Shown: positions 4,814 through 60,230, counted from the first letter of the stretch. The stretch is DNA of 64,000 bases from an uncultured Oscillospiraceae bacterium (GCA_958423465.1 CATZRD010000006.1:21712-85711), one strand, 5' to 3'. A program made the numbers and translations. Notes: a model not told the origin generated them from the letters alone.

Positions 4814-4897
4814 CCCCCGGCGGCCTCTCATACAGTGGGGGTAACGGAGCTTGACTCATGTATCCGCCCCACAGGGGCAAAAGGGAGGACGCCAAGG

Positions 4898-6424
4898 ATG
4901 GAATGTAAGCTGACAAGATCGGGCCACGACTATTACGAGCCCCTGCGCTGGCCCAGCTTTTCCTGTGAGACCATGCGGGAGAGCATCGTGCCGGACAGCT
5001 GCCCGGATATCGCCCGGATCATCGATACGGTGGGCGCCGTCTACCTGACGGGCCGGGAGCTGACCGGCGACGGCCGGTGCAGCGCCAGCGGCAGCGTGGA
5101 TGTGGCGGTGCTGTACATACCGGAGAAGGGGGAGGGGCCCCGGGTCCTCCGCTTCCAGCTTCCGTTTCAGTGCTATGGGGACAGCCTGGGGACCGGGGAG
5201 TGCGACTTTCTGGATATCCGGGGGGAGCTGCGGGGAATCGATACCCGCGCCCTGAACCCCAGAAAGGTGCTGACCCGGGCCAACATCGACCTGTATCCCT
5301 CCGGCTGCCGCCGGGTCCGTCTGGAGCTGTGCGACGGCGCGGAGGAGGAGCAGGAGGATCTTCAGCTGCTGCGGGAGGAGCGTACCTGCCGGGTGGTGGC
5401 CGCCGTCCGGGAGCGGGAATTCACCTTCGTGGAGGAGCTGCCGGTGTCCGCCGGCCGGGCCGGCGGGGAGGAGGCGGTGCAGCTCCGCTGCGACGTGCGC
5501 TCCAACGACGTGAAGCTCATCGGCAGCAAGCTGGTGGTGAAGGGGCTGATCTCCGCCAGCCTGCTCTACCGGGAGGAGGGGGGCCGCCTGGCCCTTTTGC
5601 AGCAGGATCTGCCCTTCTCCCAGATTCTGGACGGCGCGGGGCTGGAGGAGGACTGGGACAGCGAGGCCGCGTTCCGCCTGCTCAGCGCCGAGTGCCGCCT
5701 GGGCAGCGAGAGCGCCCCGGACGACGCCCATGTGTTCACCGTGACGCTGCTGCTGCGGACCCGGGTGACCGTCTGCCGCCAGGAGCGGATGGGCTATATC
5801 GCGGACCTCTACAGCACCGCCGGAGAGATCGACTGTCAGACGGAGACCCTGCGCCTGACGGAGGACGCCCAGCGGGTGGTCCGCCGCCAGAACGTCCGGG
5901 AGCTGCTGGAGACGGGGGTGGGGGTCAAGTCGGTGGTGGACGCCTCCGTGGTCTGCGGCGCCGCCCAGGTGGGCGGCAGCGCCCTGGAGATCCCGGTGAG
6001 CGCCCGGTGCCTGTATCTGGACGAGAACGACGCCCTGCGCTCCGTGACCCGGGAGTTCACCGCCTCCTGTCCGGCGGAGCTGCCGGAGGGCTTTCAGGCG
6101 GAGGGCGAGGCGGTATGCCGGGGGGAGATGATGACCAGCGTTCTGCCGGAGGGGATCGAGCTGCGCTTCCCCCTGGAGTGTACCCTGGAGCTCTGCCGCC
6201 GGACGGAGCGGCTGTGCGTCAGCGCCGGGGAGCGGCGGGAGCGGCCGGAGGACCAGGAGCCGCAGCCCTCCCTGATCCTGCGGAAGTTTTCCGGGGACGA
6301 GACGCTGTGGGCGGTAGCGAAGCAGTACCGCACCACCGCCCAGGCGATCTTGTCGGTGAACGGGGCCGAGAGCGAGGCCCAGCTGCCCAGAGACCGGCTG
6401 CTGCTGGTCCCGCGGGCCCGGTAA
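4898..6424 (+). CDS. sipL: SipL/SpoVID-like sporulation protein (DUF3794-type N-region plus C-terminal LysM)
   Basis: C-terminal LysM motif (FSGDETLWAVAKQY...SVNG); immediately upstream of spoIVA; ATG 4898 after GGGAGG RBS (track start 4835 is an extension). Confidence 0.65.
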   Translation: MECKLTRSGHDYYEPLRWPSFSCETMRESIVPDSCPDIARIIDTVGAVYLTGRELTGDGRCSASGSVDVAVLYIPEKGEGPRVLRFQLPFQCYGDSLGTGECDFLDIRGELRGIDTRALNPRKVLTRANIDLYPSGCRRVRLELCDGAEEEQEDLQLLREERTCRVVAAVREREFTFVEELPVSAGRAGGEEAVQLRCDVRSNDVKLIGSKLVVKGLISASLLYREEGGRLALLQQDLPFSQILDGAGLEEDWDSEAAFRLLSAECRLGSESAPDDAHVFTVTLLLRTRVTVCRQERMGYIADLYSTAGEIDCQTETLRLTEDAQRVVRRQNVRELLETGVGVKSVVDASVVCGAAQVGGSALEIPVSARCLYLDENDALRSVTREFTASCPAELPEGFQAEGEAVCRGEMMTSVLPEGIELRFPLECTLELCRRTERLCVSAGERRERPEDQEPQPSLILRKFSGDETLWAVAKQYRTTAQAILSVNGAESEAQLPRDRLLLVPRAR

Positions 6425-6494
6425 CGGGGCGGCCGCCTGGAGGCGGACAAAAATTTGAGCGGAAGCAAAGCGCCGGAGGGCGCAGGAGGGTACT

Positions 6495-7973
6495 ATGACG
6501 ACCACAGACATCTATCAGGATATCGCCACCCGCACCGGCGGCTCCCTGTTCGTGGGAGTGCTGGGTCCGGTGCGCACCGGAAAGTCCACCTTTATCAAGC
6601 GGTTCATGGAGACCTGCGTGATCCCCAATATCGAGAACGTCTACCGGCGGGAGCGGGCCATCGACGAGCTGCCTCAGTCCGGCAGCGGACGGACCATCAT
6701 GACGGCGGAGCCGAAGTTCGTGCCGGAGGAGGCGGTGACCGTCACCCTGGAGGGGGGCGTCACCTTCGCCGTGCGGCTCATCGACTCCGTGGGCTACATG
6801 GTCCGGGGGGCCATGGGCCAGACCGAGGACGGCGCGCCCCGAATGGTCATGACCCCCTGGTCGGATCAGGAGCTGCCCATGGCCCAGGCGGCGGAGATCG
6901 GCACCCGGAAGGTCATCTGCGAGCACTCCACCGTGGGCATCGTCATCACCACCGACGGCACCGTCACCGACATCCCCCGGGAGGACTATCTGGAGCCGGA
7001 GGAGCGGGTGATCCGGGAGCTGCAGGAGCTGGGCAAGCCCTTCGTGGTTCTGCTGAACTCCGCCCAGCCCCACGCCCAGCGTGCCCTGTCCATCGCCCGG
7101 GACATCGAGAGCAAATTCTCCGTCCGCTGCCTGCCGGTGAACTGTCTGGAGCTGGGGGAGGAGGCCATCTTCGATATCATCAAGAGCATCCTCTATGAGT
7201 TCCCCCTGCGGGAGCTGCGGATGTTCCTGCCCGCCTGGGTGGACGCCCTGCCCATGGACCACCCCATCAGGCAGTCGGTCTACGGGGCCATCCGGGACCG
7301 GGGGGAGACCCTGGCCCACATCCGGGAGGTGGAGCCGGTGATCCAGGCCATGGGGGAGGAGGAGAACATCTCCCTGGCCCGGGTGACGGCCATCGATCTG
7401 GGCCGGGGCGTGGCCTCGGCGGAGGTGCAGCTCCCCAGAGAGCTGTTCTACCAGACCCTCAGCACCCAGTCCGGCTTCCAGGTGTCCGACGACGGAGACC
7501 TGATGGACCTGCTGACAGCCCTGGCCAAGGTGAAATCCAGCTACGACAAGGTAGCCTCCGCCCTGGACAACGTCTACGAGACGGGCTACGGCATCGTCAT
7601 GCCCACCATGGATGAGCTGAAGCTGGAGGAGCCGGAGGTCATGCGCCAGGGCGGGCGCTACGGCATCCGCCTGAAGGCCAGCGCCCCCTCCGTCCACATG
7701 TTCAAGGTGGACATTGAGTCCACCGTCAGCCCCATTGTGGGCAACGAGAAGCAGAGCGAGGACATGGTCAACTACCTGATGGAGAAGTTCGCCTCGGACC
7801 CGGCCAAGATCTGGGAGTCCAATATCTTCGGCCGCAGCTTCCACGAGCTGGTGAACGAGGACCTGCAGGCAAAGCTGTACCGGATGCCCATGGACGCAAG
7901 GCTGAAGTTCCAGGAGACCCTCCAGCGCATCGTCAACGAGGGCAGCGGCGGCCTCATCTGCATCATTCTGTGA
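6495..7973 (+). CDS. spoIVA: stage IV sporulation protein A (coat morphogenetic ATPase)
   Basis: N-terminal Walker A GPVRTGKSTF and full-length SpoIVA-like sequence. Confidence 0.9.
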   Translation: MTTTDIYQDIATRTGGSLFVGVLGPVRTGKSTFIKRFMETCVIPNIENVYRRERAIDELPQSGSGRTIMTAEPKFVPEEAVTVTLEGGVTFAVRLIDSVGYMVRGAMGQTEDGAPRMVMTPWSDQELPMAQAAEIGTRKVICEHSTVGIVITTDGTVTDIPREDYLEPEERVIRELQELGKPFVVLLNSAQPHAQRALSIARDIESKFSVRCLPVNCLELGEEAIFDIIKSILYEFPLRELRMFLPAWVDALPMDHPIRQSVYGAIRDRGETLAHIREVEPVIQAMGEEENISLARVTAIDLGRGVASAEVQLPRELFYQTLSTQSGFQVSDDGDLMDLLTALAKVKSSYDKVASALDNVYETGYGIVMPTMDELKLEEPEVMRQGGRYGIRLKASAPSVHMFKVDIESTVSPIVGNEKQSEDMVNYLMEKFASDPAKIWESNIFGRSFHELVNEDLQAKLYRMPMDARLKFQETLQRIVNEGSGGLICIIL

Positions 7974-36375: not shown

Positions 36376-36427
36376 ACCGAAGGGAAGGGACCCGCGCCGC
36401 GGCGCGGGTCCCTTCCCTTCGGTTTTG
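36376..36427. terminator. bidirectional intrinsic terminator between polC and malQ
   Basis: ~22-bp perfect palindromic stem ACCGAAGGGAAGGGACCCGCGCC... flanked by A-run and T-run. Confidence 0.85.
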
Positions 36428-36429
36428 GT

Positions 36430-37926
36430 TCAGTTATGTGCTGATTCCGGCAGGCGCCGGTAGAGCGCGGTCTCGTGGCGGAGACGCCGGGCCAGTTCCG
36501 GGGTAAAATCGCCAGGGAGGGCCCGCCAGGTCCAGTTTTTCCCCAGGGTGGAGGGCTTGTTCATCCGGGCCTCATGCCCCAGGCCCAGCAGGTCCTGAGC
36601 GGTGACGATGGCGGTGTCCGCCGCGGAGGCCAGGGCGCTTCGCATCAGGCCCCAGTGGCAGCCCTCGCCCTCGGTGAGTTTCAGGTAGTCCACGGCGAAG
36701 GCCCGGTCCTCCGGGGAGAGGCTTTCCAGCCAGCCCAGGGCGGTGTCGTTGTCGTGGGTGCCCACATAGCACACGCAGTTTCTGCCGTAGTTATGGGGCA
36801 AATAGTCGCTCTCCACGCCCCGGCTGTCAAAGGCCATCTGCAGGACCTTCATGCCGGGGAAGCCAGTCTCCCGGAGAAGCTGCCGCACCGAGTCGGTAAG
36901 ATAGCCCAGGTCCTCGGCGATGATGGCCTGCTTTCCCAGAGCCCGCTCCACCGCCCGGAAGAGCTTCATCCCGGGCCCCTGCCGCCAGTGGCCGTCCCGG
37001 GCGGTGGCCGCCTGGGGAGGGATGACGTAGTAGGCGTCGAACCCCCGGAAGTGGTCGATCCGCAGCATATCATAGAAGCTCTTCTGCCAGCGGATGCGCT
37101 GGATCCACCAGGCGTAGCCGTCGGCCTCCATCCGCTCCCAGTCGAAGAGGGGGTTGCCCCACAGCTGGCCGTCGGCGGTGAAGCCGTCCGGCGGGACGCC
37201 GGCCACCTCCACGGGCCGCATGTCCCCGTCCAGCTGGAACTGTCCGGGCCGGGCCCACACGTCGGCGGAGTCGCCGGAGACATAGATGGGCAGGTCCCCG
37301 ATAAAGCGGACGCCCCGGCGGTTGGCGTAGTCCTTCAGGGCGGACCACTGGCGGAAGAAGAGGTACTGGACCCCCTGCCAGAAGTCCATCGGGTCCGCCA
37401 GACGGGCCCTGGCGGCGTCCATGGCGGCCGGCTCCCGCCGGCGGAGGGAATCGGGCCACTCCTGCCAGGAGCGGCCGCCGTTTTCCTCTTTCAGCGCCAT
37501 GAAGAGGGCGTAGTCGGGCAGCCAGGACCCGTTGCCGGCGAGGAAGTCCCCGTAGTCCGCCGGGGGCGCCTCCAGCAGCCGCTGGACCGCCCGGCGCAGT
37601 ACGCCGTTCCGCTGGCGGTAGAGGAGGCCGAAGTCCACCTGCCGGGGGTCGTCCCCCCAGGACAGGGAGGCGTACTCCTCCCGCTTCAGCAGGCCGTCCG
37701 CCGCCAGATCGTCCAGATCGATGAGGTAGGGATTGCCCGCGAAGGTGGAAAAGCTCTGATAGGGAGAGTCGCCGAAGCTGGTAGGCCCGATGGGCAGGAT
37801 CTGCCACCAGGTCTGTCCCGCCGCGGCGAGAAAGTCCGCGAAATCTCTGGCCGCCTGCCCCATGGTCCCCACGCCATAGGGGGAGGGGAGGCTGGTCAGG
37901 TGCATCAATACGCCGCTGGTCCTCAT
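36430..37926 (-). CDS. malQ: 4-alpha-glucanotransferase (amylomaltase)
   Basis: GH77 N-terminus (GVLMHLTSLPSPYGVG) and full length; start overlaps LacI stop (ATGA). Confidence 0.85.
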   Translation of the reverse strand: MRTSGVLMHLTSLPSPYGVGTMGQAARDFADFLAAAGQTWWQILPIGPTSFGDSPYQSFSTFAGNPYLIDLDDLAADGLLKREEYASLSWGDDPRQVDFGLLYRQRNGVLRRAVQRLLEAPPADYGDFLAGNGSWLPDYALFMALKEENGGRSWQEWPDSLRRREPAAMDAARARLADPMDFWQGVQYLFFRQWSALKDYANRRGVRFIGDLPIYVSGDSADVWARPGQFQLDGDMRPVEVAGVPPDGFTADGQLWGNPLFDWERMEADGYAWWIQRIRWQKSFYDMLRIDHFRGFDAYYVIPPQAATARDGHWRQGPGMKLFRAVERALGKQAIIAEDLGYLTDSVRQLLRETGFPGMKVLQMAFDSRGVESDYLPHNYGRNCVCYVGTHDNDTALGWLESLSPEDRAFAVDYLKLTEGEGCHWGLMRSALASAADTAIVTAQDLLGLGHEARMNKPSTLGKNWTWRALPGDFTPELARRLRHETALYRRLPESAHN

Positions 37927-38966
37927 AGGTCATCCATCCTGCCTTTCATGTGCCGCACGCTTTCGCCCAGGGTCAGGGAAAAGGGGATGATCTCATGGAC
38001 CGCGTCCTGTTCCCCCGCCAGCTGCGCCAGCAGAATTTCCACGCCCCGCCGGGCCATCTGGTCCGCGCCCTGCCGGATGGTGGTCAGCCGGGGGGTGCAG
38101 TAATGGGCCTGCTCGATGCCGTCGTAGCCCATGACAGACACGTCCTCCGGGATTCGCCGGCCCCGGTCCAGGACGGCCCGGATGGCGCCGATGGCCATCA
38201 CGTCCGACATGGCGAAGATGGCGGTCAGCTCCGGCATACGGTCCAACAGGACCCGGGTGCCCTCGTAGCCGCCCTCCATGGAGAAACGGGCCTGGGCGGT
38301 CTGGCTGGCCGGGTCGAAGGGAACGCCCCGCTGGGCGCAGGCCCGGATGCAGCCGGTGAGGCGGAGCTGACTGGTGTTGCAAAGCAGCTCCGGGCTGACC
38401 ACGCAGCTTTCGCCGCCGATGACGCCCACGGCACGGTGTCCCGCGTCCAGCAGAAAGCCCATGGCGCTGGCGGCGCCGTCGATGTCGTCGGTGGCTACGC
38501 TGGAGAGGTTGGGAAAGCCCATGGCGCTGGCCCGGTTGGAGACCAGCACGCAGGGACAGACGATCTGACCGAAACTTTTCAGAAAGTTGCCGCGGTTGCC
38601 GCCCAGAAACAGGATGCCCATGGGCTTCAGCTCCCGGCAGACGCGGACGGCCTGCTCCACCTCGTTGTCATCCTCGTCCAGATAGTAGACCGCGGCGGCC
38701 TTGCCGGCGGCCTTGATGAGGCTCTGCATCGTCTCCAGAATACTGGCGAAGAGCATATTGCCCACACCTTTGACGATGATGGCGATGCTTTCGCTCCTGC
38801 GCTGCTTCAGGTGGCGGGCATTGTCGTTGGGCTGGAAGCCGGTCTCCGCCACCACGGCCAGAACGCGGGACCTGGCTTCGGGGCTGACCCCCGGGGTCCC
38901 GTTCAGGACCCGGGAGACGGTACCCACGGCGTAGCCGGAGCGGCGGGCGATGTCCTTGATGGTCAC
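37923..38966 (-). CDS. LacI family transcriptional regulator
   Basis: N-terminal HTH (TIKDIARRSGYAVGTVSRVLN) plus periplasmic-binding-fold domain; GTG start with GGAGGTG RBS. Confidence 0.85.
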   Translation of the reverse strand: MTIKDIARRSGYAVGTVSRVLNGTPGVSPEARSRVLAVVAETGFQPNDNARHLKQRRSESIAIIVKGVGNMLFASILETMQSLIKAAGKAAAVYYLDEDDNEVEQAVRVCRELKPMGILFLGGNRGNFLKSFGQIVCPCVLVSNRASAMGFPNLSSVATDDIDGAASAMGFLLDAGHRAVGVIGGESCVVSPELLCNTSQLRLTGCIRACAQRGVPFDPASQTAQARFSMEGGYEGTRVLLDRMPELTAIFAMSDVMAIGAIRAVLDRGRRIPEDVSVMGYDGIEQAHYCTPRLTTIRQGADQMARRGVEILLAQLAGEQDAVHEIIPFSLTLGESVRHMKGRMDDL

Positions 38967-38982
38967 AGGGCCGACACCTCCG

Positions 38983-39831
38983 TCAGCCCTTGACCGCGCC
39001 GGCGATCACGCCCTTGATGATGTGCTTCTGGCAGAGGAGATAGACGATGATGATGGGCAGCACCGTCATCATGATGCAGGCCATCATGGGGCCCATTTCC
39101 ACCTTCCCGAAGCTGCCACGGAAATACTGGATCAAAATGGGGATGGTCTGATAGCCCTTGGTGCGGTCCAGCACCAGATAGGGCAGCAGATAGTCGTTCC
39201 ACACCCACATGGTCTCCAGAATCCCTACGGAGATCAGCGTAGGCTTCAGCACGGGCAGCACCACCAGGAAGAAGGTGCGCAGGGGGCCGCAGCCGTCGAT
39301 CATGGCGGCCTCCTCGATCTCCAGAGGGATGGACTTCATGAACCCGCAGAACATGAAGGAGGCCAGCCCCGCGCCGAAGCCCAGATAGATGATGCAGATA
39401 TTGTAGGGGTTGGAGAGCTTCAGCCGGTCCGCCGTGGAACTGAGGGTGAACATGAGCATCTGGAAGGGGACCACCATGGAAAAGACAAAGAGGAAGTAGC
39501 ACAGCTTGCTCCACCAGGTCTGTACCCGGGTGACGAACCACGCGCACATGGAGCAGCAGATCAGAATCAGCACCACAGAGGTGACGGTAATCACCAGAGA
39601 GTACCAAAAGGCGGTGAGGAAGCCCTTGGACTGAAGGGCGTTCACGTAGTTGGCAAGTCCCGCGAAGCTCTCGGCGTTGGGCAGCTGAAAGGCGGTGGAC
39701 GTGGTAATAGCCGTATCCTTCTTCAACGAGTTGAACAGGATCATCACGATGGGATATACCCAGGCCAGACACAGGATCCCCAGAACGACGGAGAGGATGG
39801 CGTCCTTGATCTTAGCTGATTTTGCCATTAC
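38983..39831 (-). CDS. carbohydrate ABC transporter permease (MalG-like)
   Basis: EAA loop motif region (IDGCGPLRTFFLVVLP); ATG at comp 39829-39831 with AAGGAGGTG RBS (track start 39933 is an extension). Confidence 0.8.
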   Translation of the reverse strand, partial: VMAKSAKIKDAILSVVLGILCLAWVYPIVMILFNSLKKDTAITTSTAFQLPNAESFAGLANYVNALQSKGFLTAFWYSLVITVTSVVLILICCSMCAWFVTRVQTWWSKLCYFLFVFSMVVPFQMLMFTLSSTADRLKLSNPYNICIIYLGFGAGLASFMFCGFMKSIPLEIEEAAMIDGCGPLRTFFLVVLPVLKPTLISVGILETMWVWNDYLLPYLVLDRTKGYQTIPILIQYFRGSFGKVEMGPMMACIMMTVLPIIIVYLLCQKHIIKGVIAGAVKG

Positions 39832-40679
39832 TGCTGCACCTCCTTGGAGCGGGTTGCCCGAAGCTGGATGGCGGAAATAGCGATGACCAGCAGGCAGAAG
39901 ATGACCGCCTTGGCCTGGCCGTAGCCCTTCCACTGGGCTCCGGAGCGTCCGTAGAATGTGTTGTAGATATTCAGCGCCAGACCCTCGGTGAGATGCTTCG
40001 GCTCGCCGCCGGTGAGGGCCAGGTTCTGATCGAAGAGCTTAAAGCCGTTGGTCAGGGTCAGGAACAGGCAGATGGTGATGGAGGGCATGACATTGGGGAT
40101 CTTGACCTTCCACAGGGTCTGCCAGCTGTTGGCCCCGTCGATCTTCGCCGCCTCCAGATAGTCCGTGGGGATGGACTGGAGGCCGGCAATATAAATGATC
40201 ATCATGTAGCCGATCTGCTGCCAGCACATCAGGATCACAAGACCCCAGAAGCCGTAGGTAGCGTCCAGACTCAGCAGAGGCTTTTCCAGCAGCGCCAGGG
40301 CACAGTTGAGCAGGATCTGCCAGATGTAGCCCAGCACGATGCCGCCGATGAGGTTGGGCATAAAGTACACGGTACGGAAGACATTGGTCCCCTTGATGTT
40401 CCGCGTCAGTGCCAGGGCGATGGCGAAGGCCGCCACGTTGATGAGCAAGGTGGAAACGACCGTAAAGGCGGCGCTGAAGCCGAAGGCATGGAGAAATTCC
40501 GAGTCCGTCAGAGCGTACGCGTAGTTTTTGATGCCGTTCCAGCTGGCCTTGTCAATGGTGATGAACCGGCAGAAGGACAGGTACAGCCCCTGCAGGAACG
40601 GCCAGACGAAGCCCACCATGAACGCGGCTACGGTAGGCAGGAGAAACACCGGCCACCACTTTTTCAGCGTTCTTTGCAA
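39828..40679 (-). CDS. carbohydrate ABC transporter permease (MalF-like)
   Basis: EAA motif (EAAKIDGANSWQTLWKVKIP); TTG start after AGGAGGG RBS. Confidence 0.75.
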   Translation of the reverse strand: MQRTLKKWWPVFLLPTVAAFMVGFVWPFLQGLYLSFCRFITIDKASWNGIKNYAYALTDSEFLHAFGFSAAFTVVSTLLINVAAFAIALALTRNIKGTNVFRTVYFMPNLIGGIVLGYIWQILLNCALALLEKPLLSLDATYGFWGLVILMCWQQIGYMMIIYIAGLQSIPTDYLEAAKIDGANSWQTLWKVKIPNVMPSITICLFLTLTNGFKLFDQNLALTGGEPKHLTEGLALNIYNTFYGRSGAQWKGYGQAKAVIFCLLVIAISAIQLRATRSKEVQQ

Positions 40680-40785
40680 AATGATCCCTCCTCTTTTTAA
40701 AAAGGGGAGGGCGGGCAGCGCCCACCCTCCCGGTTCCGCCGCTGCGCGGAAACTTGAATCGTGATGCGAAAAGCGGTGCTGGGGA

Positions 40786-42177
40786 TCAGCCCTTCAGAGC
40801 CTCGTACTCGCTGGCCCAGCCGTCCACGAAAGCGGAGACCACGGCGTCCCAGTCGCCGGTACCGGCGGCATAAGCGGTCAGGGCGGAGCCAAGATCGTTC
40901 TTCCAGTTCTCAGAAGGCATGGTGGGGAAGTTCCAGGACACGGGGGTCTTGCCGGCGGCGGTCATCTCCTGATCCTGCTTGACGAACAGGTTGGGGGACT
41001 CCACGGCGGACTTGAAGGGGATGACGAAGCCCATGTCGTTGGCCATGGCCTGGGTGCCCTTATCGGAAGTGACGCACCAGTTCATGAAGTCCAGGGTGGC
41101 CTGGATGTTCTCCTCGGAAGCGGAGTTGTTGACGCACCAGTAGTTCTCGGTGCCGGTGCACAGGCCCTGGTTGGCCTCGTCGCCCACGCCGATGTAGATG
41201 GGGATCATGGCCAGGTCGTCATCCGTGAACTTGCCGTCGCCTACCAGGTTGCCGTACTCCCAGGAACCGTTCTGGAAGAACACGGCCTGGCCGGCCAGGA
41301 ACTCGTTGCGGGAGTCGTCGCCGGTCTTGCCGGCCAGATCCGCGGGGCTGCAGGTGGAGTTGTTGATGTACAGATCAAAGATGTCCTTGTAGTTGTCCAG
41401 ATAGGTGCCCTTGATGGCCTCGGTGGTGCCGATGCCGTCGGCCTGGTACTCAAAGTAGATGGGCAGGTTGGCCAGGTGGGTCTTGAAGCGCCAGTCGGAG
41501 GAACCGTCCATACCGGTGGAGGAGAAGGCGGCGAAGCCCAGCTCGTCCTTGCGGGCGGTGATGTCCTCGGCGACCTTCTTCAGATCGGCGAAGCTCTTGA
41601 TGTCATCCACAGAAGATCGGCGAAGCTCTTGATGTCATCCACAGAGTAGCCGGCCTGCTGGAGCAGGGTCTTGTTGGTGATGAGGCCGTAGGACTCGATG
41701 ACGTAGGCGATGCCCAGCACGGCGTCCTCGTCCTTCAGGGCGAAGTCCTCGCTGGTCAGCTCGCCCAGGATGGCGGAGCCGTTGAGATCCAGGCAGTAGT
41801 CCTTCCAGTTGGCAAGACCCACAGGGCCGTTGACCTGGAAGAGGGTGGGCGGATTGCTCTTGGCGATCTCGCTCATCAGGGTCTCCTCATAGGTGCCGGA
41901 GGCGGCGGTGACCACGGTGACAGGCACGCCGGTCTCCTCGGTGTAGGCCTTGGCCAGGGCCTGCCAGGCGTCGTTCTGCTCAGGCTTGAAGTTCAGGTAG
42001 TAGACCTCGCCCTTGGCGTCCTTGGAGGGCTCGTTGGTCTTGTCGGTGTCAGCGGGCTGGTTGGTGTCGCTGGGGGTGTTGGTGTCGCTGGGTTTGTTGG
42101 CGTTGTTGCCGCAGCCGGCCAGCAGGCCGATGAACAGCGCGGCGACAAGAGTCAGCGCAAGCAGTCTTTTCTTCATT
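40786..42177 (-). pseudogene. extracellular solute-binding protein (family 1 sugar SBP) disrupted by frameshifting 32-bp tandem duplication
   Basis: Lipoprotein signal MKKRLLALTLVAALFIGLLAGC at comp 42175-42177; two consecutive ORFs share the duplicated peptide DDIKSFADL; removing one 32-bp copy restores a single ~455-aa frame. Confidence 0.7.
41582..41645. repeat. perfect 2 x 32-bp tandem direct duplication (AGATCGGCGAAGCTCTTGATGTCATCCACAGA)
   Basis: Identical copies at 41582-41613 and 41614-41645. Confidence 0.9.
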
Positions 42178-42235
42178 TGGTAAGATCCTCCTTCAAAATT
42201 TCGCGATGGTGTTTTGACCATCCCTGGGCCGCCTG

Positions 42236-42264
42236 GAAACGTTTCATTGGAAACGTTTCCAACT
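42236..42264. promoter_or_regulatory. tandem palindromic operators TGGAAACGTTTCA / TTGGAAACGTTTCCAA (LacI-family / cre-like)
   Basis: Two copies of perfect palindrome GAAACGTTTC just downstream of minus-strand promoter (-35 TTGTAC comp 42301-42306, -10 TAGAAT comp 42278-42283). Confidence 0.6.
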
Positions 42265-42455: not shown

Positions 42456-43544
42456 TCAGTCGCCGCTGATGCCCAGCTCCACCCACAGGTCGTTATAGAG
42501 GGTGTTGGTCTCGTCGGGGAGGAGGTGATAGGGCTCGCAGCGGTCCAAAACCTCCTTGGAGGGGGCCATGATGGCGTACAGCTCCGGGTCAAGGGGCTCG
42601 CCGTAGGTCTCCTGATAGTAGGCGGGGTACTGCTCCAGCGCTTCCCGGTTGGGGGAGGCGTACCAGATATAGTCCATGTTCTTCAGGCTGGCCTCGGTGA
42701 AGCAGATGAAGTTGATCCACGCCTCCGCCTCCTCCTTGTGCTCCGCGTCCTTCAGCACGCACATGGCGTCCACGAACCAGTTGCTGCCCTCGTCGGGGAT
42801 CACAAACCGCAGGTCCTGGTTGTTGCTGTACATACTGAGAAAGTCCCCGGCGTAGTAGGCGCAGATGGTGGTCTCCCCGGCCTCCATCTTGTCGTAAAGC
42901 TCATCCATGAAGAAGCCCTGATACACCCCGGCGGCCTTGGCGTCGGCGATGAGCTGGAAGGCCTCCCGGATCTGAGCCTCGTCGGTGGTGTTCACGGAGT
43001 AGCCCAGGCGCATGAGGCCGATGCCGATGGCGTCCCGGGGATTGCGGATCATGGCGATCTGCCCCGTGTACAGCTCGTCAAACATGGCGCCCCAGCTGGA
43101 CAGGGGGTAGTCGCACTTGGCGCTGTTGTAGATCACGCCCAGAGTGCCCCAGGTGTAGGGTACGGTGTACCTGTTCTCCGGGTCGTAGTCCAGATTTTTA
43201 TACTGATCGTCAATGAGATCGAAGTTGGGGATGTTGTCGTAGTTCAGCTCCGCCAGCAGGCCCTCCCGGATCAGCCGGGCGATCATGTAGTCCGAGGGGA
43301 CGATGACGTCGTAATCCCCGCCGCCGCTCTGGATCTGGGAGTACATCATCTCATTGCTTTCCGCTTCCTTGTAGTTGACCTTGATACCAGTTTCTTCCTC
43401 AAACTGCTCAATGAGGTCCGGGTCGATATTCTCGCCCCAGCCGCACACGTTGACCACCCGCTGCTTATCAGAGCCGCCGGAACAGGCGCTGAGCAGGGCC
43501 AGCGCCATGGAAAGGGCCAACATCAAGGCGATTGCTTTTTTCAA
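42456..43544 (-). CDS. potD: spermidine/putrescine ABC transporter substrate-binding protein
   Basis: Lipoprotein signal (LSAC) and PotD-family sequence. Confidence 0.85.
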   Translation of the reverse strand: MKKAIALMLALSMALALLSACSGGSDKQRVVNVCGWGENIDPDLIEQFEEETGIKVNYKEAESNEMMYSQIQSGGGDYDVIVPSDYMIARLIREGLLAELNYDNIPNFDLIDDQYKNLDYDPENRYTVPYTWGTLGVIYNSAKCDYPLSSWGAMFDELYTGQIAMIRNPRDAIGIGLMRLGYSVNTTDEAQIREAFQLIADAKAAGVYQGFFMDELYDKMEAGETTICAYYAGDFLSMYSNNQDLRFVIPDEGSNWFVDAMCVLKDAEHKEEAEAWINFICFTEASLKNMDYIWYASPNREALEQYPAYYQETYGEPLDPELYAIMAPSKEVLDRCEPYHLLPDETNTLYNDLWVELGISGD

Positions 43545-43603
43545 TTGATCATTCCTCCAATTCTGATTTGATGTATTTCACGGGCTTTGCCGTAAAATCC
43601 GCG

Positions 43604-44467
43604 CTACTGCTTCCGCTGGGCCAGGGCCTTCTCCTGCCGGGCCTCCCGGACGTTGACGATGATGAGCAGCACCAGCACCGTCACGAACAGCAGGGAGGAG
43701 ATGGCGTTGATCTTGGGGCTGATGCGCTTTTTGGTCATGCCGTAGACCACCATGGCCAGGGTAGAGGTGGAGGACCCGGCGGTGAAGTAGGAGATGACGA
43801 AGTCGTCCACGCTCATGGTGAAGGCGATGAGGGCCCCGCTGACGATGCCCGGCTTGATCTCCGGCAGCACCACCTTCCAGAAGGCCTGCATCCAGGTGCA
43901 GCCCAGGTCCTGGGCTGCGTCAATGAGGTTTTTGTCCATCTGCCGCAGCTTGGGCATGACGGACAGCAGCACATAGGGGATGTCAAAGGTGATATGGGCG
44001 ATGAGGAGGGTGGCGAAGCCCATGTGGAGCCGGGTGGGCAGGTCCCAGCCGAAGGTCCCGTTGAGCCATCCGGCGAAGGAGGACCAGCCGGAGAAGAACG
44101 CCACGAACAGCAGGCACAGGCTCACGCCGGTGACGATATCCGCGTTGGTCATGGGGATGTTGTTCAGCGTCAGCAGGGGCGCGCGCCACCGCTTTTTCAT
44201 GTTGAAGAAGCCCACGGCGGCAAAGGTCCCCGCCACGGTGGCGATGAGGGTGGCGATGAGGGATACCAGAAGGGTGGTGGTGAGCGCGCTCATGATGGAG
44301 CTGTCCCGCAGCAGCTCCTCGTACCAGTGAAGGGAAAAGCCCTGCCAGACGGTGCGGCTCTTGGAGGAGTTGAAGGAAAAGACCATGAGCACGAAAATGG
44401 GCGCGTAGAGGAACAGGAACACCAGCGCCATAAAGAAGCGATTCAGAGCGGAGCCGGACTTTTTCAT
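43604..44467 (-). CDS. potC: spermidine/putrescine ABC transporter permease
   Basis: 6-TM permease with EAA-like loop (DAAQDLGCTWMQAFWKVVLP). Confidence 0.85.
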   Translation of the reverse strand: MKKSGSALNRFFMALVFLFLYAPIFVLMVFSFNSSKSRTVWQGFSLHWYEELLRDSSIMSALTTTLLVSLIATLIATVAGTFAAVGFFNMKKRWRAPLLTLNNIPMTNADIVTGVSLCLLFVAFFSGWSSFAGWLNGTFGWDLPTRLHMGFATLLIAHITFDIPYVLLSVMPKLRQMDKNLIDAAQDLGCTWMQAFWKVVLPEIKPGIVSGALIAFTMSVDDFVISYFTAGSSTSTLAMVVYGMTKKRISPKINAISSLLFVTVLVLLIIVNVREARQEKALAQRKQ

Positions 44468-45348
44468 AGCATCACCGCCTGTTCCTCGCCCTCACCGAAG
44501 CGATTCATCACCGCCATGCACACCACCACGATGACCATCATCACCAGGGAGATGGCGGAGCCCAGATAGGGGTTGTAGGTAGCGCCCAGAAACTGCTGCT
44601 CGATCAGGTCCCCCAGGAGCAGCTCGTTGCTGCCGCCCAGCAGCTTGGAGATGGCGAAGGTGGACACCGAGGGGACGAACACCATGGTCACGCCGGAGAG
44701 GACCCCGGGCAGGCTCAGGGGCAGGATCACCTTCCGGAACACGCCCACGCTGTTGGCGCCCAGGTCCCGGGCGGCTTCCACCAGGGAATTGTCCAGCTTT
44801 TCGATGACGGAGTAGATGGGGAGGATCATGAAGGGCAGGTAGTTATAGACCATGCCCAGCACCACGGCTCCCTGGGTATTGATCATGTGGAAATACTCGA
44901 TATTTGTGCCGAAGAGCCGGTTGATGAGATCAAACAGCCCGATGGCGGCGAAAAAGCGGTTGAGAAGTCCCGTATTCTCCAGAATGGACATCCAGGAGTA
45001 GGTCCTCAGCAGAAAGTTCATCCACATGGGCAGCATGACGAGCATCATGGCGATCCGCTGGAACCGGGGGCTCTCCCGGGAGATCATATAGGCGATGGGG
45101 TAGCCGATGAGCAGGCAGACGGCCGTGGCAACGATGGCCAGCTTAAAGGAACGGGTGAACACCACCATGTAGCCGCCCATTTTGGAGAAGTTCTCCAGGG
45201 TAAAGCCGCCGGCGGCGGAGGAAAAGGCGTAGATCACCACCAGAACGATGGGAGCCACCACGAAAAGCGCCATCCAGCCCACATAGGGTACGGCGAACAG
45301 GGCGCGCTTATTCTTCACGGCTGCCCTCCCGGGGGGCGTCCTCCTCAT
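44464..45348 (-). CDS. potB: spermidine/putrescine ABC transporter permease
   Basis: Permease with [20 protein letters not shown] loop; 4-nt overlap with potC. Confidence 0.85.
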
Positions 45349-46512
45349 CCGCGTCCAGCATGGTCACGTCGTCCATCCCCTCGTACTCCTCGGAGTAGGA
45401 GCTGTAGTCGCCGAACATGCCGGAATACTGGCTCTTGTGCATGATGTGGATGTCGTCGGGGTTGAGGGTGATGCCGATGACCTCCCCCACCTCATGGCAG
45501 TCCGTGGTCTGGATCAGCCACTTGAAGCCCTTGAAGTCCACGATGGTGTCGTAGTGGACGCCCTTGAAGGTGACGGAGGTGACGGTGCCCTTCAGCTGCC
45601 CCTTTTCCGGGGGGACGATGTCGATGTCCTCGGGACGGATGACCACGTCCACCGGCTCCATGGGGGCGAAGCCCTTGTCCAGACACTTGAACTTCCGGTT
45701 GAAGAACTCCACCACATAGTCCTGGTGCATCACGCCGTCCAGAATATTGCTCTCGCCGATGAAGTCCGCCACAAAGGCGTTCTTCGGCTCGTTGTACACG
45801 TCCTCGGGGGTGCCGATCTGCTGGATCTTTCCCTGGTCCATGACCACGATGGTGTCGCTCATAGCCAGAGCCTCCTCCTGGTCGTGGGTGACGTAGATGA
45901 AGGTGATGCCCAGCTGCTGCTGGATGCGCTTCAGCTCGTTCTGCATGTCCTTGCGCAGGCGCAGGTCCAAAGCCCCCAGCGGCTCGTCCAGCAGCAGCAC
46001 CTTGGGCCGGTTCACCAGGGCCCGGGCGATGGCCACCCGCTGCTGCTGTCCGCCGGACAGCTCGTTGATGCGGCGGTTCTCAAAGCCCTTCAGGCTCACC
46101 ACCTCCAGCATCTCCAGTACCCGCTGGCGGATCTCCGATTCGGGAATCTTCGTCTTTTTCTTTTTGGACCGGCCATTTTCCTCCACCGTCTCCGTCTTGC
46201 CGATGCGCAGGCCGAAGGCCACGTTCTCAAAGACGTTCAGGTGGGGGAAGAGGGCGTACCGCTGGAACACGGTGTTGACCTGCCGCAGATGGGGGGGAAT
46301 ATCATTGATCCTCACCCCGTCGAACAGCACTTCGCCAGAAGTGGGCGTCAAAAAGCCGCCAATGATGCGCAAGGTGGTGGTCTTGCCGCAGCCACTGGGT
46401 CCGAGCAGCGTGAGGAACTCACTGTCATTAAAATATAGATTGATGTGATCGAGAACCAGCTCGCCGTCAAACGCCATGCTGCAGTCAACAAGGCGAATCA
46501 ACTCTTTGGACA
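45308..46512 (-). CDS. potA: spermidine/putrescine ABC transporter ATP-binding protein
   Basis: Walker [10 protein letters not shown], signature LSGGQQQR, Walker B LLLDEP; ATG at comp 46510-46512 with GGAGGA RBS (track start 46678 is an extension). Confidence 0.85.
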
Positions 46513-46636
46513 TGTATCCTCCCCCATTCCTTCTCCATAAATTCAGCCCCAACAAGACCCGGTTCCAGGTGCTGTCAAGGCGTAGAAAATCGCCTGCTTC
46601 CCCTGAGTATTTCTCCCCGGAGAAGCAGGCAAGCAT

Positions 46637-46665
46637 ACTATATCTTCTTTGTGTCGAAATGTCAA
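46637..46665 (-). promoter_or_regulatory. SigA promoter of potABCD (-35 TTGACA, 17 nt, -10 TATAGT)
   Basis: Hexamers at comp 46660-46665 and comp 46637-46642. Confidence 0.55.
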
Positions 46666-46705
46666 TGAAATTGCGCAAAAAAATGGGGAAATTTTTGAGT
46701 TTTTT

Positions 46706-57962: not shown

Positions 57963-60230
57963 TTACGCGGCCTTGGTCTCAGTCTCCACAGGAGTCTCAG
58001 TTTCGGCGGGAGCCTCGGTCTCAGCCTCCTGAACGGGGGCCTCGGCGGCGGCCTCAGCGAAGCGCTCCAGGATGGTGATCACCTGGTCGCGGGTGAGAGT
58101 GCCCAGAGGAGCGAAGGTGGTCTCGGCAGTGCCGGTCATCAGCTTCTTGCTGACAGCCCACTGCACGGCCTCGCCGGCGTAAGCGCCGATGGAGGCGGCG
58201 TCGGTGTAGGCGCTGAGATCGCACTCCACAGCCTCGGCCTTGGCGTAACGGAACAGGATGGTAGCCATATCCTGACGGGTCAGGGAAGCGTCGGGCTGGA
58301 AGGTGCCGTCGGGATAGCCCTTGATGACCTCGTTCTGGCTGGCCCAGATCACGGCGCTGGCGCAGGCGGCGTCGGCGGCCACGTCAGAGAAGGGGGCCTC
58401 GCCGGTGACCTCGGGAGAACCGGCCAGCTCGTACAGGGCCACAGCCAGCTCGCCGCGGGTAGCCACGGTGGTGTCGGCGACCTTGACGGTGATGCGGCCG
58501 GCGGGCTCGCCGTACTGCTCGGCGGTGACCTTGCCCTCCAGGACGGTGGTGATGTACTCCATCACGACCTCATCCATGGGGAAGCCCAGGTCATAGTTGG
58601 CGGTGGCGGTGGTGAAGGCGAAGTAGGTGTCGCCGCCGGCGGCCATAAAGTCGTTGGTGGCGATGGTGTAGGTAGCCTCGGGATCAAAGTCCTTGCCGCC
58701 GACCTTGGCGATGGTCACGCGGTTGATGGTCTTGGGCGCGAAGTAGGTGGTAGAGCCGTAAGCCTCGCCCTGGTCATAGGCCTTGGTGGTGTCGATGGTG
58801 AACTCAATACCGGACACCTGGGGGAAGCCGCCGATGGCGTCGGGGGTGCAGAAGGTGGAAGCCTCCAGGACCTCCAGCAGCTCGCTGCCCTTGATCTTGA
58901 TGATGTTCAGGGTGTTGCCGAAGGGCAGAACGGTGTTGACGTCCTTCTTGGTGATGTCGCCCACGGCGATGGCGGCGCGGATGCCGCCGCCGTTGGTGAT
59001 GGCGCCGTCAACAGCCTCGCCCTCCTGGGTGGCCTTCCAGACCAGAGCGTCGGTGATCAGGTCGCCCAGATTGGTCTCCTGGGTGCGGTTGCCGGGGGCC
59101 TTGGCGCCGTTCAGCTCCACCTCGGAGGCGGCGAACACGGTGCCGTAATCGGCGTCGATCTCCGCCTGGATCGCGGCGGCCCGGGCGGCGATGGCGTCGC
59201 CCTCAGCGACCTCGATGGTGTCGGCGGCCACGCACTCGGTGGTGATGACGCCGTCCTTGATGGTGACCACGCCCACGTTGGCGATCTTGGTGCCGGTGGA
59301 GGTCAGAACGGTCTCGCCCACGGTGCGGTTTTCGCTGGTGGCTTCAGCAATGGCCGCCAGTTCACTGTGGGAGTGACCGTCGATGAACACGCTGATGCCG
59401 GTGACCTTCTCCAGCAGATCGATGGAGCGGTTGGCGGTAGCGGCGGTCTCCTTGTCAATGCCCAGGTGGCCCAGAGCGATGACGTAGGTGCAGCCGGCGG
59501 CCTTCAGGGCGTCCACCTGAGCCTGGGCGATCTTGTACATCTCCTCGCCGCCGGCGAAGGACACGCCCTTGATCTTGGCGGGGTTAGCCTTGGAAGCGGT
59601 CTCGGGGGTATCCAGACCGAACACGCCGATCTTGGTGCCGTCAGGAGCCTCGAAGGTGACGTTGTCACCGAAGGCCAGTTTGCCCTCATAGGTGATGTTG
59701 GCGGCCAGGATGGGGAACTCAGCGGCCCCGGCCAGCTTGGTCAGGTTCTCATAGCCATAGTCAAACTCATGGTTGCCGGGAGCGGCCACATCGTAGCCGG
59801 CCATGTTCATCAGCTCGATGGCGGAAGCGCCCTGAGAGACATTCACAGAGGGAGCTCCCTGGCTGAAGTCACCGGCGTCCATCAGCAGGACGTAGGCGCC
59901 CTCGGCCTCGTACTTGGCCTTCAGCGCGGCGACCTTGGCGTAGTTCTCAGTAGCGCCGTGGACGTCGTTGGTGTGCAGGATCACGATGGCGCCGTTAAAG
60001 GCGGGAGTCTCGCTGGCAGAGGGCTCCTCGCCCTCAGCGGGGGTCTCGCCCTCGGCGGGAGCCGCCGTCTCGCCCTCAGCGGGGGTCTCGGCGTCGGTCT
60101 TGGTTTCCTCCGTGGCGGTGGGTTGGCCCTCCGCCGCGGCGTCCTCGCCCTCCGCGAAGGCGACGACCGTGGTGCCGAAGGCCATGATCATTGCCAGCAG
60201 AAGAGCGAGAAGCTTGTTCCACTTTTTCAT
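57963..60230 (-). CDS. bifunctional metallophosphatase/5'-nucleotidase with C-terminal SLH (S-layer homology) repeats
   Basis: Signal peptide, metallophosphatase motifs (HTNDVHG, GNHEFD), 5'-nucleotidase C domain, three SLH-like repeats. Confidence 0.8.
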   Translation of the reverse strand: MKKWNKLLALLLAMIMAFGTTVVAFAEGEDAAAEGQPTATEETKTDAETPAEGETAAPAEGETPAEGEEPSASETPAFNGAIVILHTNDVHGATENYAKVAALKAKYEAEGAYVLLMDAGDFSQGAPSVNVSQGASAIELMNMAGYDVAAPGNHEFDYGYENLTKLAGAAEFPILAANITYEGKLAFGDNVTFEAPDGTKIGVFGLDTPETASKANPAKIKGVSFAGGEEMYKIAQAQVDALKAAGCTYVIALGHLGIDKETAATANRSIDLLEKVTGISVFIDGHSHSELAAIAEATSENRTVGETVLTSTGTKIANVGVVTIKDGVITTECVAADTIEVAEGDAIAARAAAIQAEIDADYGTVFAASEVELNGAKAPGNRTQETNLGDLITDALVWKATQEGEAVDGAITNGGGIRAAIAVGDITKKDVNTVLPFGNTLNIIKIKGSELLEVLEASTFCTPDAIGGFPQVSGIEFTIDTTKAYDQGEAYGSTTYFAPKTINRVTIAKVGGKDFDPEATYTIATNDFMAAGGDTYFAFTTATANYDLGFPMDEVVMEYITTVLEGKVTAEQYGEPAGRITVKVADTTVATRGELAVALYELAGSPEVTGEAPFSDVAADAACASAVIWASQNEVIKGYPDGTFQPDASLTRQDMATILFRYAKAEAVECDLSAYTDAASIGAYAGEAVQWAVSKKLMTGTAETTFAPLGTLTRDQVITILERFAEAAAEAPVQEAETEAPAETETPVETETKAA

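Follow-up and report, generated by a model that had tools for sequence, protein, structure and literature searches.

By the window we mean the whole stretch of DNA that was analysed, 64,000 nucleotides in length and with a G+C content of 64%, which is core chromosome and carries hom, lysC, sipL, spoIVA, tig, clpX, lon, pyrH, frr, uppS, dxr, rseP, ispG and polC. Its host is a human-gut, spore-forming Clostridia species of Oscillospiraceae-like character, and the named species nearest to the substrate-binding protein (SBP) studied here are Oscillibacter, Pseudoflavonifractor and Dysosmobacter, with 83-87% amino-acid identity. SipL, with its SPOCS domain, adjoins SpoIVA (window 4835-7973), and the adjacency of sipL and spoIVA marks the organism as an endospore former. 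Elsewhere in the window, a 755-aa protein (57963-60230, minus strand) combines a 5'-nucleotidase/metallophosphoesterase with S-layer homology (SLH) domains, an architecture that implies a cell-wall-anchored nucleotidase.

The locus of interest is a sugar operon in which the initial annotation had placed an ABC substrate-binding gene together with malQ, LacI and permease genes. This layout is correct, the permeases being two in number and all of the genes lying on the minus strand:

36377..36422, no strand assigned: bidirectional terminator with a 20-bp stem between the convergent polC and malQ, forming the operon end
36430..37926, minus strand: MalQ, 4-alpha-glucanotransferase of family GH77, 498 aa, Pfam PF02446 with E 1e-177, intact
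37923..38966, minus strand: LacI-family transcription regulator, 347 aa, intact
38983..39828, minus strand: ABC permease 2, 281 aa, BPD_transp_1, intact, with an ATG that shares 1 nt with the stop of permease 1
39828..40679, minus strand: ABC permease 1, 283 aa, BPD_transp_1, intact
40705..40731, minus strand: strong terminator-like hairpin with 12 pairs (10 G-C) and a CTTTTT tail, located between the genes for the SBP and permease 1
40786..42176, minus strand: gene for a CUT1-type carbohydrate ABC substrate-binding lipoprotein, disrupted; 452 aa with one copy of the duplication removed
42234..42259, no strand assigned: two copies, 14 bp apart, of the direct repeat TGGAAACGTTTC, with the palindrome GAAACGTTTC inside each, from a repeat search

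Maltose/maltodextrin CUT1 importers of Firmicutes and E. coli comprise MalEFG or MdxEFG, the LacI-family regulator MalR, MalQ and a shared MsmX/MalK ATPase. The operon resembles these systems in its gene content, with a lipoprotein SBP, a pair of MalF/MalG-type permeases, a regulator of the LacI family and a GH77 4-alpha-glucanotransferase, and, like the MsmX-sharing systems, it is devoid of an ATPase gene. The two adjacent MalF/MalG-type permease genes of a CUT1 system are recognised here by their BPD_transp_1 matches, while both proteins score weakly, under the cut-offs, with the MalF, MalG and UgpA/E models; MalQ reaches 665 bits against NCBIfam NF011080 (cut-off 477). The operon differs from the MalEFG type in that the matches to the MalF/MalG and MalI models lie far under the equivalog cut-offs, in that the SBP, by its sequence, does not qualify as an orthologue of MalE, and in that the ATPase partner of the sugar operon is not encoded within the 64-kb window, whose only ABC_tran protein (45308-46678) belongs to a neighbouring Pot-like operon. 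This neighbour lies directly upstream (42456-46678, minus strand) and makes up a complete ABC system of the Pot-like type: an ATPase bearing a TOBE_2 domain, two permeases and an SBP lipoprotein, for which public gene calls place the start differently (350 aa vs 362 aa). The linkage of SBP, permease, permease and MalQ extends to other Clostridia species, where 67 of 80 related loci have malQ in the same orientation.

The hairpin between the SBP and permease 1 genes is probably a partial terminator or attenuator that keeps SBP mRNA above permease mRNA, and the direct repeats at 42234-42259 are probably operators for the operon's own LacI-family regulator. A sigma-70 promoter scan upstream of the SBP gene found nothing. 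By eye, a promoter candidate TTGTAC-17 nt-TAGAAT can be read at 42305-42277 on the minus strand, which fails the scan criteria, and the repeats sit between this candidate and the SBP start.

As had been noted from the first inspection of the sequence, the SBP gene is split into two ORFs by a tandem duplication, and translation bears this out with products of 198 aa and 274 aa. The elements of the disrupted gene are:

42111..42176, minus strand: lipoprotein signal peptide, MKKRLLALTLVAALFIGLLAGC, with lipobox cysteine C22, from translation
41580..42176, minus strand: N-terminal fragment ORF, 198 aa, from translation; signal peptide and lipobox, native for 188 residues and then out of frame for 10
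41614..41645, minus strand: copy of the 32-bp unit, first in gene orientation, encoding native S178-L188 (SVDDIKSFADL); TRF, exact-repeat scan and translation
41582..41613, minus strand: copy of the 32-bp unit, AGATCGGCGAAGCTCTTGATGTCATCCACAGA on the plus strand, second in gene orientation; TRF, exact-repeat scan and translation
40786..41610, minus strand: C-terminal fragment ORF, 274 aa, with a GTG start at 41610 and beginning (M)DDIKSFADLKKV

The gene reads on the minus strand from an ATG at 42174-42176, preceded by a GGAGGA ribosome-binding site, to a stop at 40786-40788; the feature end of 42177 given originally lies one base too far, as the ATG ends at 42176. Deletion of one copy restores a single lipoprotein ORF, as had been anticipated, although its length is 452 aa and not the estimated 455 aa or so. 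The repaired protein matches Pfam SBP_bac_8 (PF13416) over residues 73-395 with an E-value of 2e-44 and 152.8 bits (cut-off 27). It carries a lipobox (MKKRLLALTLVAALFIGLLAG-C22, LLAGC), whose cysteine C22 is invariant across 23 homologues in the alignment. AlphaFold, given an alignment of 23 sequences, yielded a poor model of the repaired SBP (mean pLDDT 48.5). An imperfect 18-bp tandem repeat at 42060-42100 (2.3 copies, 91% matches) encodes PSDTNTPSDTN in a low-complexity linker, which, lying directly after the lipobox cysteine, is the typical length-variable tether region of lipoprotein SBPs.

Both ORFs encode the peptide DDIKSFADL, as had been pointed out and as translation confirms. In the 198-aa ORF the native SVDDIKSFADL, encoded by the first copy, is followed by the second copy read out of frame as LWMTSRASPI and by a stop at 41580-41582. 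The 274-aa ORF, when its sequence is read directly, has neither a signal peptide nor a Shine-Dalgarno sequence, and for this reason the C-terminal fragment is not expected to be made or exported. Two ways in which the split gene might still yield a working protein were considered and rejected, as the intact single-ORF allele predominates: programmed ribosomal frameshifting, for which a slippery or stimulatory signal is absent, and a functional split gene, for which the C-terminal fragment lacks a signal peptide or ribosome-binding site.

Regarding its substrate, the sole significant relative of the SBP in the PDB is 9xor (E 1.7e-20 with the single sequence, 6.5e-24 with the profile), which is PsMBP, an alpha-glucosaccharide-binding SBP of Paenibacillus sp. 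FPU-7 that binds maltose, trehalose, maltotriose and maltotetraose (PMC13311272). Like the window SBP, PsMBP adjoins permease genes, although the identity between the two proteins is only about 25-30%. We mapped the ligand contacts of PsMBP (PMC13311272) via a HMMER alignment, the residue number in the paper being the chain index + 51, an offset confirmed by the SVGGGA loop and eleven named residues, and we located F63 and K64 by extending the alignment without gaps. Nine of the 11 mapped residues contacting Glc1 and Glc2 are identical in the window SBP. Phe61, Lys62, Glu64, Glu162, His216, Trp291 and Trp398, which contact Glc1 in PsMBP, correspond to F63, K64, E66, E161, H223, W295 and W404, and Trp211 and Glu407, which contact Glc2, correspond to W218 and E412. 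In contrast, F406 stands in place of Trp400 and T222 in place of Asn215, TAASG takes the position of the flexible SVGGGA loop, and the Glc3 contacts Trp210, located in a PsMBP insertion, and Phe401 (P407 here) have no counterpart. No NCBIfam equivalog model was matched at cut-off by the SBP. An alpha-glucoside of the maltose/maltodextrin type is thus a well-supported prediction for the substrate, founded on homology at about 25-30% to one characterised protein and on gene context. The maltodextrin uptake named in the initial annotation is plausible but slightly over-specific, given that the nearest characterised relative binds several alpha-glucosides.

The duplication itself is sharply defined. 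TRF run on the window reports 41582-41645 as a repeat of period 32 with 2.0 copies, 100% matches and no indels, and an exhaustive scan of the whole 64-kb window for exact tandem duplications with periods of 8-399 likewise recovered the two identical copies claimed at this position. It is the only exact tandem duplication in the window with a period above 12, and the chance expectation for such a duplication in 64 kb is ~3.5e-15. At the junction between the copies, CATCCACAGA is followed directly by AGATCGGCG. The array is bordered by a c before its opening AGA and by a g after its closing AGA; since these flanking bases differ from the matching repeat ends, no sliding is possible and the array is exactly two times 32 bp, without microhomology.

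Untrimmed k-mer overlaps at contig joins are a known class of assembly artefact that leaves duplications behind, and a k of 33 is in common use for assembly. If contigs or graph edges overlapping by 32 bp (k-1 for k=33) had been joined untrimmed, the genome would be single-copy and the gene intact. The repeat resembles this class in being a perfect direct repeat without microhomology and with a length near a common k, indeed exactly k-1 for k=33; moreover, the source resembles a draft or MAG contig, and one copy is found in every other long contig of the species examined. However, SPAdes-type graphs overlap by k (21/33/55) and not by k-1, the window contains no Ns and neither a gap nor a contig end at the site, and the 64-kb window is free of any further perfect duplication of this kind, as would be left by other untrimmed joins.

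A comparison with sister strains had also been suggested as a check. The repaired 452-aa protein is 100% identical to P0001, which is found on 49 public contigs (NCBI and ENA), and one amino acid off P0002 (32 contigs). Over 13.4 kb the window shares 99.5-99.9% identity with six syntenic contigs from human-gut metagenomes (L001-L006); all of these carry a single copy, and over this distance the 32 bp are the sole indel between them and the window, which is a further point against faulty assembly. The copies and the rest of the SBP gene show no extra decay, and the event is therefore recent.

The junction was also sighted a second time. The N-terminal fragment has a public entry of its own in the protein table, P0122, recorded by NCBI and ENA from one contig (86,098 bp), and its 90% cluster has a second member, P0123, which is encoded on L088, a metaSPAdes contig of 625 bp and coverage 2.0 (ERZ18534046 NODE_117348). 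In L088 the identical junction recurs, both copies lying inside the contig, whose 625 bp show one mismatch to the window. As the junction is interior to a contig of a separate assembly, the reads must carry it, in the form of junction-spanning k-mers. This observation speaks strongly against an untrimmed-overlap artefact, which we now regard as very unlikely. Nevertheless, L088 and the window could share a host or study, so that the support they lend each other would be independent with respect to the reads but not as evidence for a second origin. When L088 is compared with the window and seven other strains, only 5 variable sites are found in about 1.57 kb, and since the SBP gene region is almost invariant among strains, descent and recurrence of the duplication are inseparable.

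A MAG consensus might alternatively have followed a minority or chimeric allele, in which case the sample would be mostly single-copy and the duplication a low-frequency variant or a library chimera. Metagenome assemblies do collapse strain mixtures, and the rarity of the duplication across samples would be in keeping with this idea. Against it, an assembler keeps to the path with better coverage and normally removes a minority bubble, retaining the major allele, and the presence of the same junction in a second dataset excludes a one-off library chimera. We therefore consider such an explanation highly improbable.

The duplication allele is rare. Among 23 long contigs with an identical downstream permease, about 20 have an intact 452-aa SBP gene, two (both from ENA assembly ERZ28565124) have a different frameshift, and in one the SBP gene runs off the contig end. 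The 32-nt junction had no match in the GTDB species representatives, where the best amino-acid identity to the SBP is <=87%, nor in the JGI metagenome contigs, which also lack the single-copy 45-mer; because the single-copy sequence is missing from both collections as well, these two null results are uninformative.

Taken together, we judge it likely that the duplication is a real, rare and recent loss-of-function allele of the SBP gene of an alpha-glucoside CUT1 importer. Between the two options that the initial annotation had offered, a genuine mutation or an assembly artefact, it is the former that is favoured by the L088 junction and by the lack of any other indel relative to the six strains.

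As to how the allele arose, a 32-bp segment of the SBP gene would have been duplicated head to tail in one lineage. The slipped-strand origin that had been put forward is not specifically supported, as an exact-repeat scan found no microhomology at the duplication borders. Folding of both strands around the site gave no hairpin, being no better than for shuffled sequence (z +1.05 and +0.74). Without microhomology or a hairpin, simple slippage between pre-existing repeats is unsupported, as is the hairpin model; an accident of replication or repair would be the default reading and the better fit. On the other hand, the two perfect copies that now exist are an ideal substrate for the precise loss of one of them, and the allele could thus revert.

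With regard to the consequence, the duplication causes a +2 frameshift beyond residue 188, with a stop 10 codons further on. The frameshift point falls in the middle of the SBP_bac_8 domain (73-395). The 198-aa stub retains four of the nine conserved contacts (F63, K64, E66 and E161), while W218, H223, W295, W404 and E412, together with F406, fall in the 274-aa ORF. As the contact residues are separated and the C-terminal part lacks an export signal, binding-protein-dependent uptake via this importer should be abolished, to judge from the translated sequence. No functional binding protein would form, the two intact permeases could then not import the substrate with high affinity, and MalQ and the LacI-family regulator would be left without imported substrate or inducer. 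In addition, the mutation may have polar effects on the genes for the permeases, the regulator and MalQ.

Given that the duplication could be undone precisely, we also considered whether it might represent more than an isolated accident, namely a reversible OFF state of a contingency-type switch or one case of recurrent adaptive SBP knockout, selected by phage or antibody escape or in a diet-dependent manner, with precise reversion by slippage or recombination. There is a precedent for such behaviour in the pneumococcal genes cap3A, cap8E and tts, in which spontaneous intragenic tandem duplications are reported to switch the capsule off, many different ones arising in the same gene, and in which cultures served to measure ON/OFF switching (Waite et al. 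2001, 2003, cited in PMC11163986 and PMC4243769). The allele in the window is alike in being a perfect head-to-tail duplication of tens of bases within a gene that brings about a frameshift knockout of a surface-related function, and in that loss of one copy would in principle give precise reversion. It is unlike the pneumococcal case in that one duplication allele is found here and the other null alleles are single-base deletions.

These other alleles emerged from a census in which the SBP N-terminal fragment was used as the query and truncated variants were then examined at the DNA level. Three clean single-base deletions were found in other metagenomes: a G deletion in L007/L090 (ERZ28565124 scaffold_16), which changes KDEDAV to KDRTPC, an A deletion on the P0002 haplotype in L089 (Logan ERR13448289), and a C deletion close to the 3' end of the gene in L091 (ERZ28563714 scaffold_1041). 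A fourth sequence, L100 (Logan SRR31481602), adds a messy double deletion, closely spaced and amid mismatches, which may be sequencing error. In L099 (ERZ27244735 k141_19000), G insertions and T-to-G and A-to-G changes cluster in the signal-peptide region and rewrite the N-terminus to P0004, MSPPLGVVAVLAGC...; this looks like a poly-G sequencing artefact in a MEGAHIT contig and not a real allele. The operon neighbours are intact in L007/L090 and L091, whose contigs reach beyond the SBP gene. With respect to duplications, the census yielded a single allele (P0122, P0123) and no second, different duplication of the SBP gene, so that the perfect intragenic tandem duplication with frameshift of the cap3A type is present among the truncated alleles, whereas several different duplications in the same gene are not.

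A reading in terms of recurrence would count at least 4 clean independent frameshift events in one 1.36-kb gene with intact operon neighbours, and it can draw on the three deletion alleles, on the additional double deletion, on the occurrence of the same junction in two assemblies and on the two adjacent perfect copies, which would serve as the substrate for precise excision. Several observations weigh against it. The wild-type sequence offers no repeat tract, microhomology or hairpin that would favour repeated duplication, the other null alleles are 1-bp deletions, and the L099 insertions and the L100 double deletion resemble sequencing error. Furthermore, in a gene this invariant among strains, the two sightings of the duplication do not distinguish recurrence from descent, and ON and OFF alleles were not observed side by side within a sample. 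Finally, one frameshift allele, P0245, also came up when the first 199 residues of MalQ were used as a control query. With similar target sizes, the N-terminal regions of the SBP and MalQ thus show 4 vs 1 frameshift events, a difference that is not significant, comes from numbers that are too small and is biased by the manner in which the alleles were discovered; an enrichment of frameshifts in the SBP gene is unproven and suggestive at most. Overall, we find it unlikely that the duplication belongs to a reversible switch or to a series of adaptive knockouts, and the fuller proposition that the SBP is a recurrent target of inactivation in the gut, with the duplication as a precisely reversible, cap3A-like OFF state, seems somewhat less likely still.

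Should that proposition hold true, a commensal Firmicute would be using a contingency switch that is not programmed, either for the uptake of nutrients or for exposure to phage or antibodies, and if SBP knockouts were enriched, selection by diet, phage or IgA would be indicated, although the present data only hint at this. With the duplication regarded instead as a rare and recent loss of function, which is the reading we prefer, the allele is new, while the type of mutation and the type of transporter are both well known. There is also a lesson for annotation, as the public 198-aa and 274-aa ORFs are the halves of one well-conserved gene, and the strain or MAG should accordingly be scored as lacking this alpha-glucoside importer. 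The knockout of the SBP is very recent, and its precise reversion would be possible. The locus is a clean example of strain-level polymorphism in carbohydrate uptake in a poorly studied, spore-forming species of gut Clostridia.
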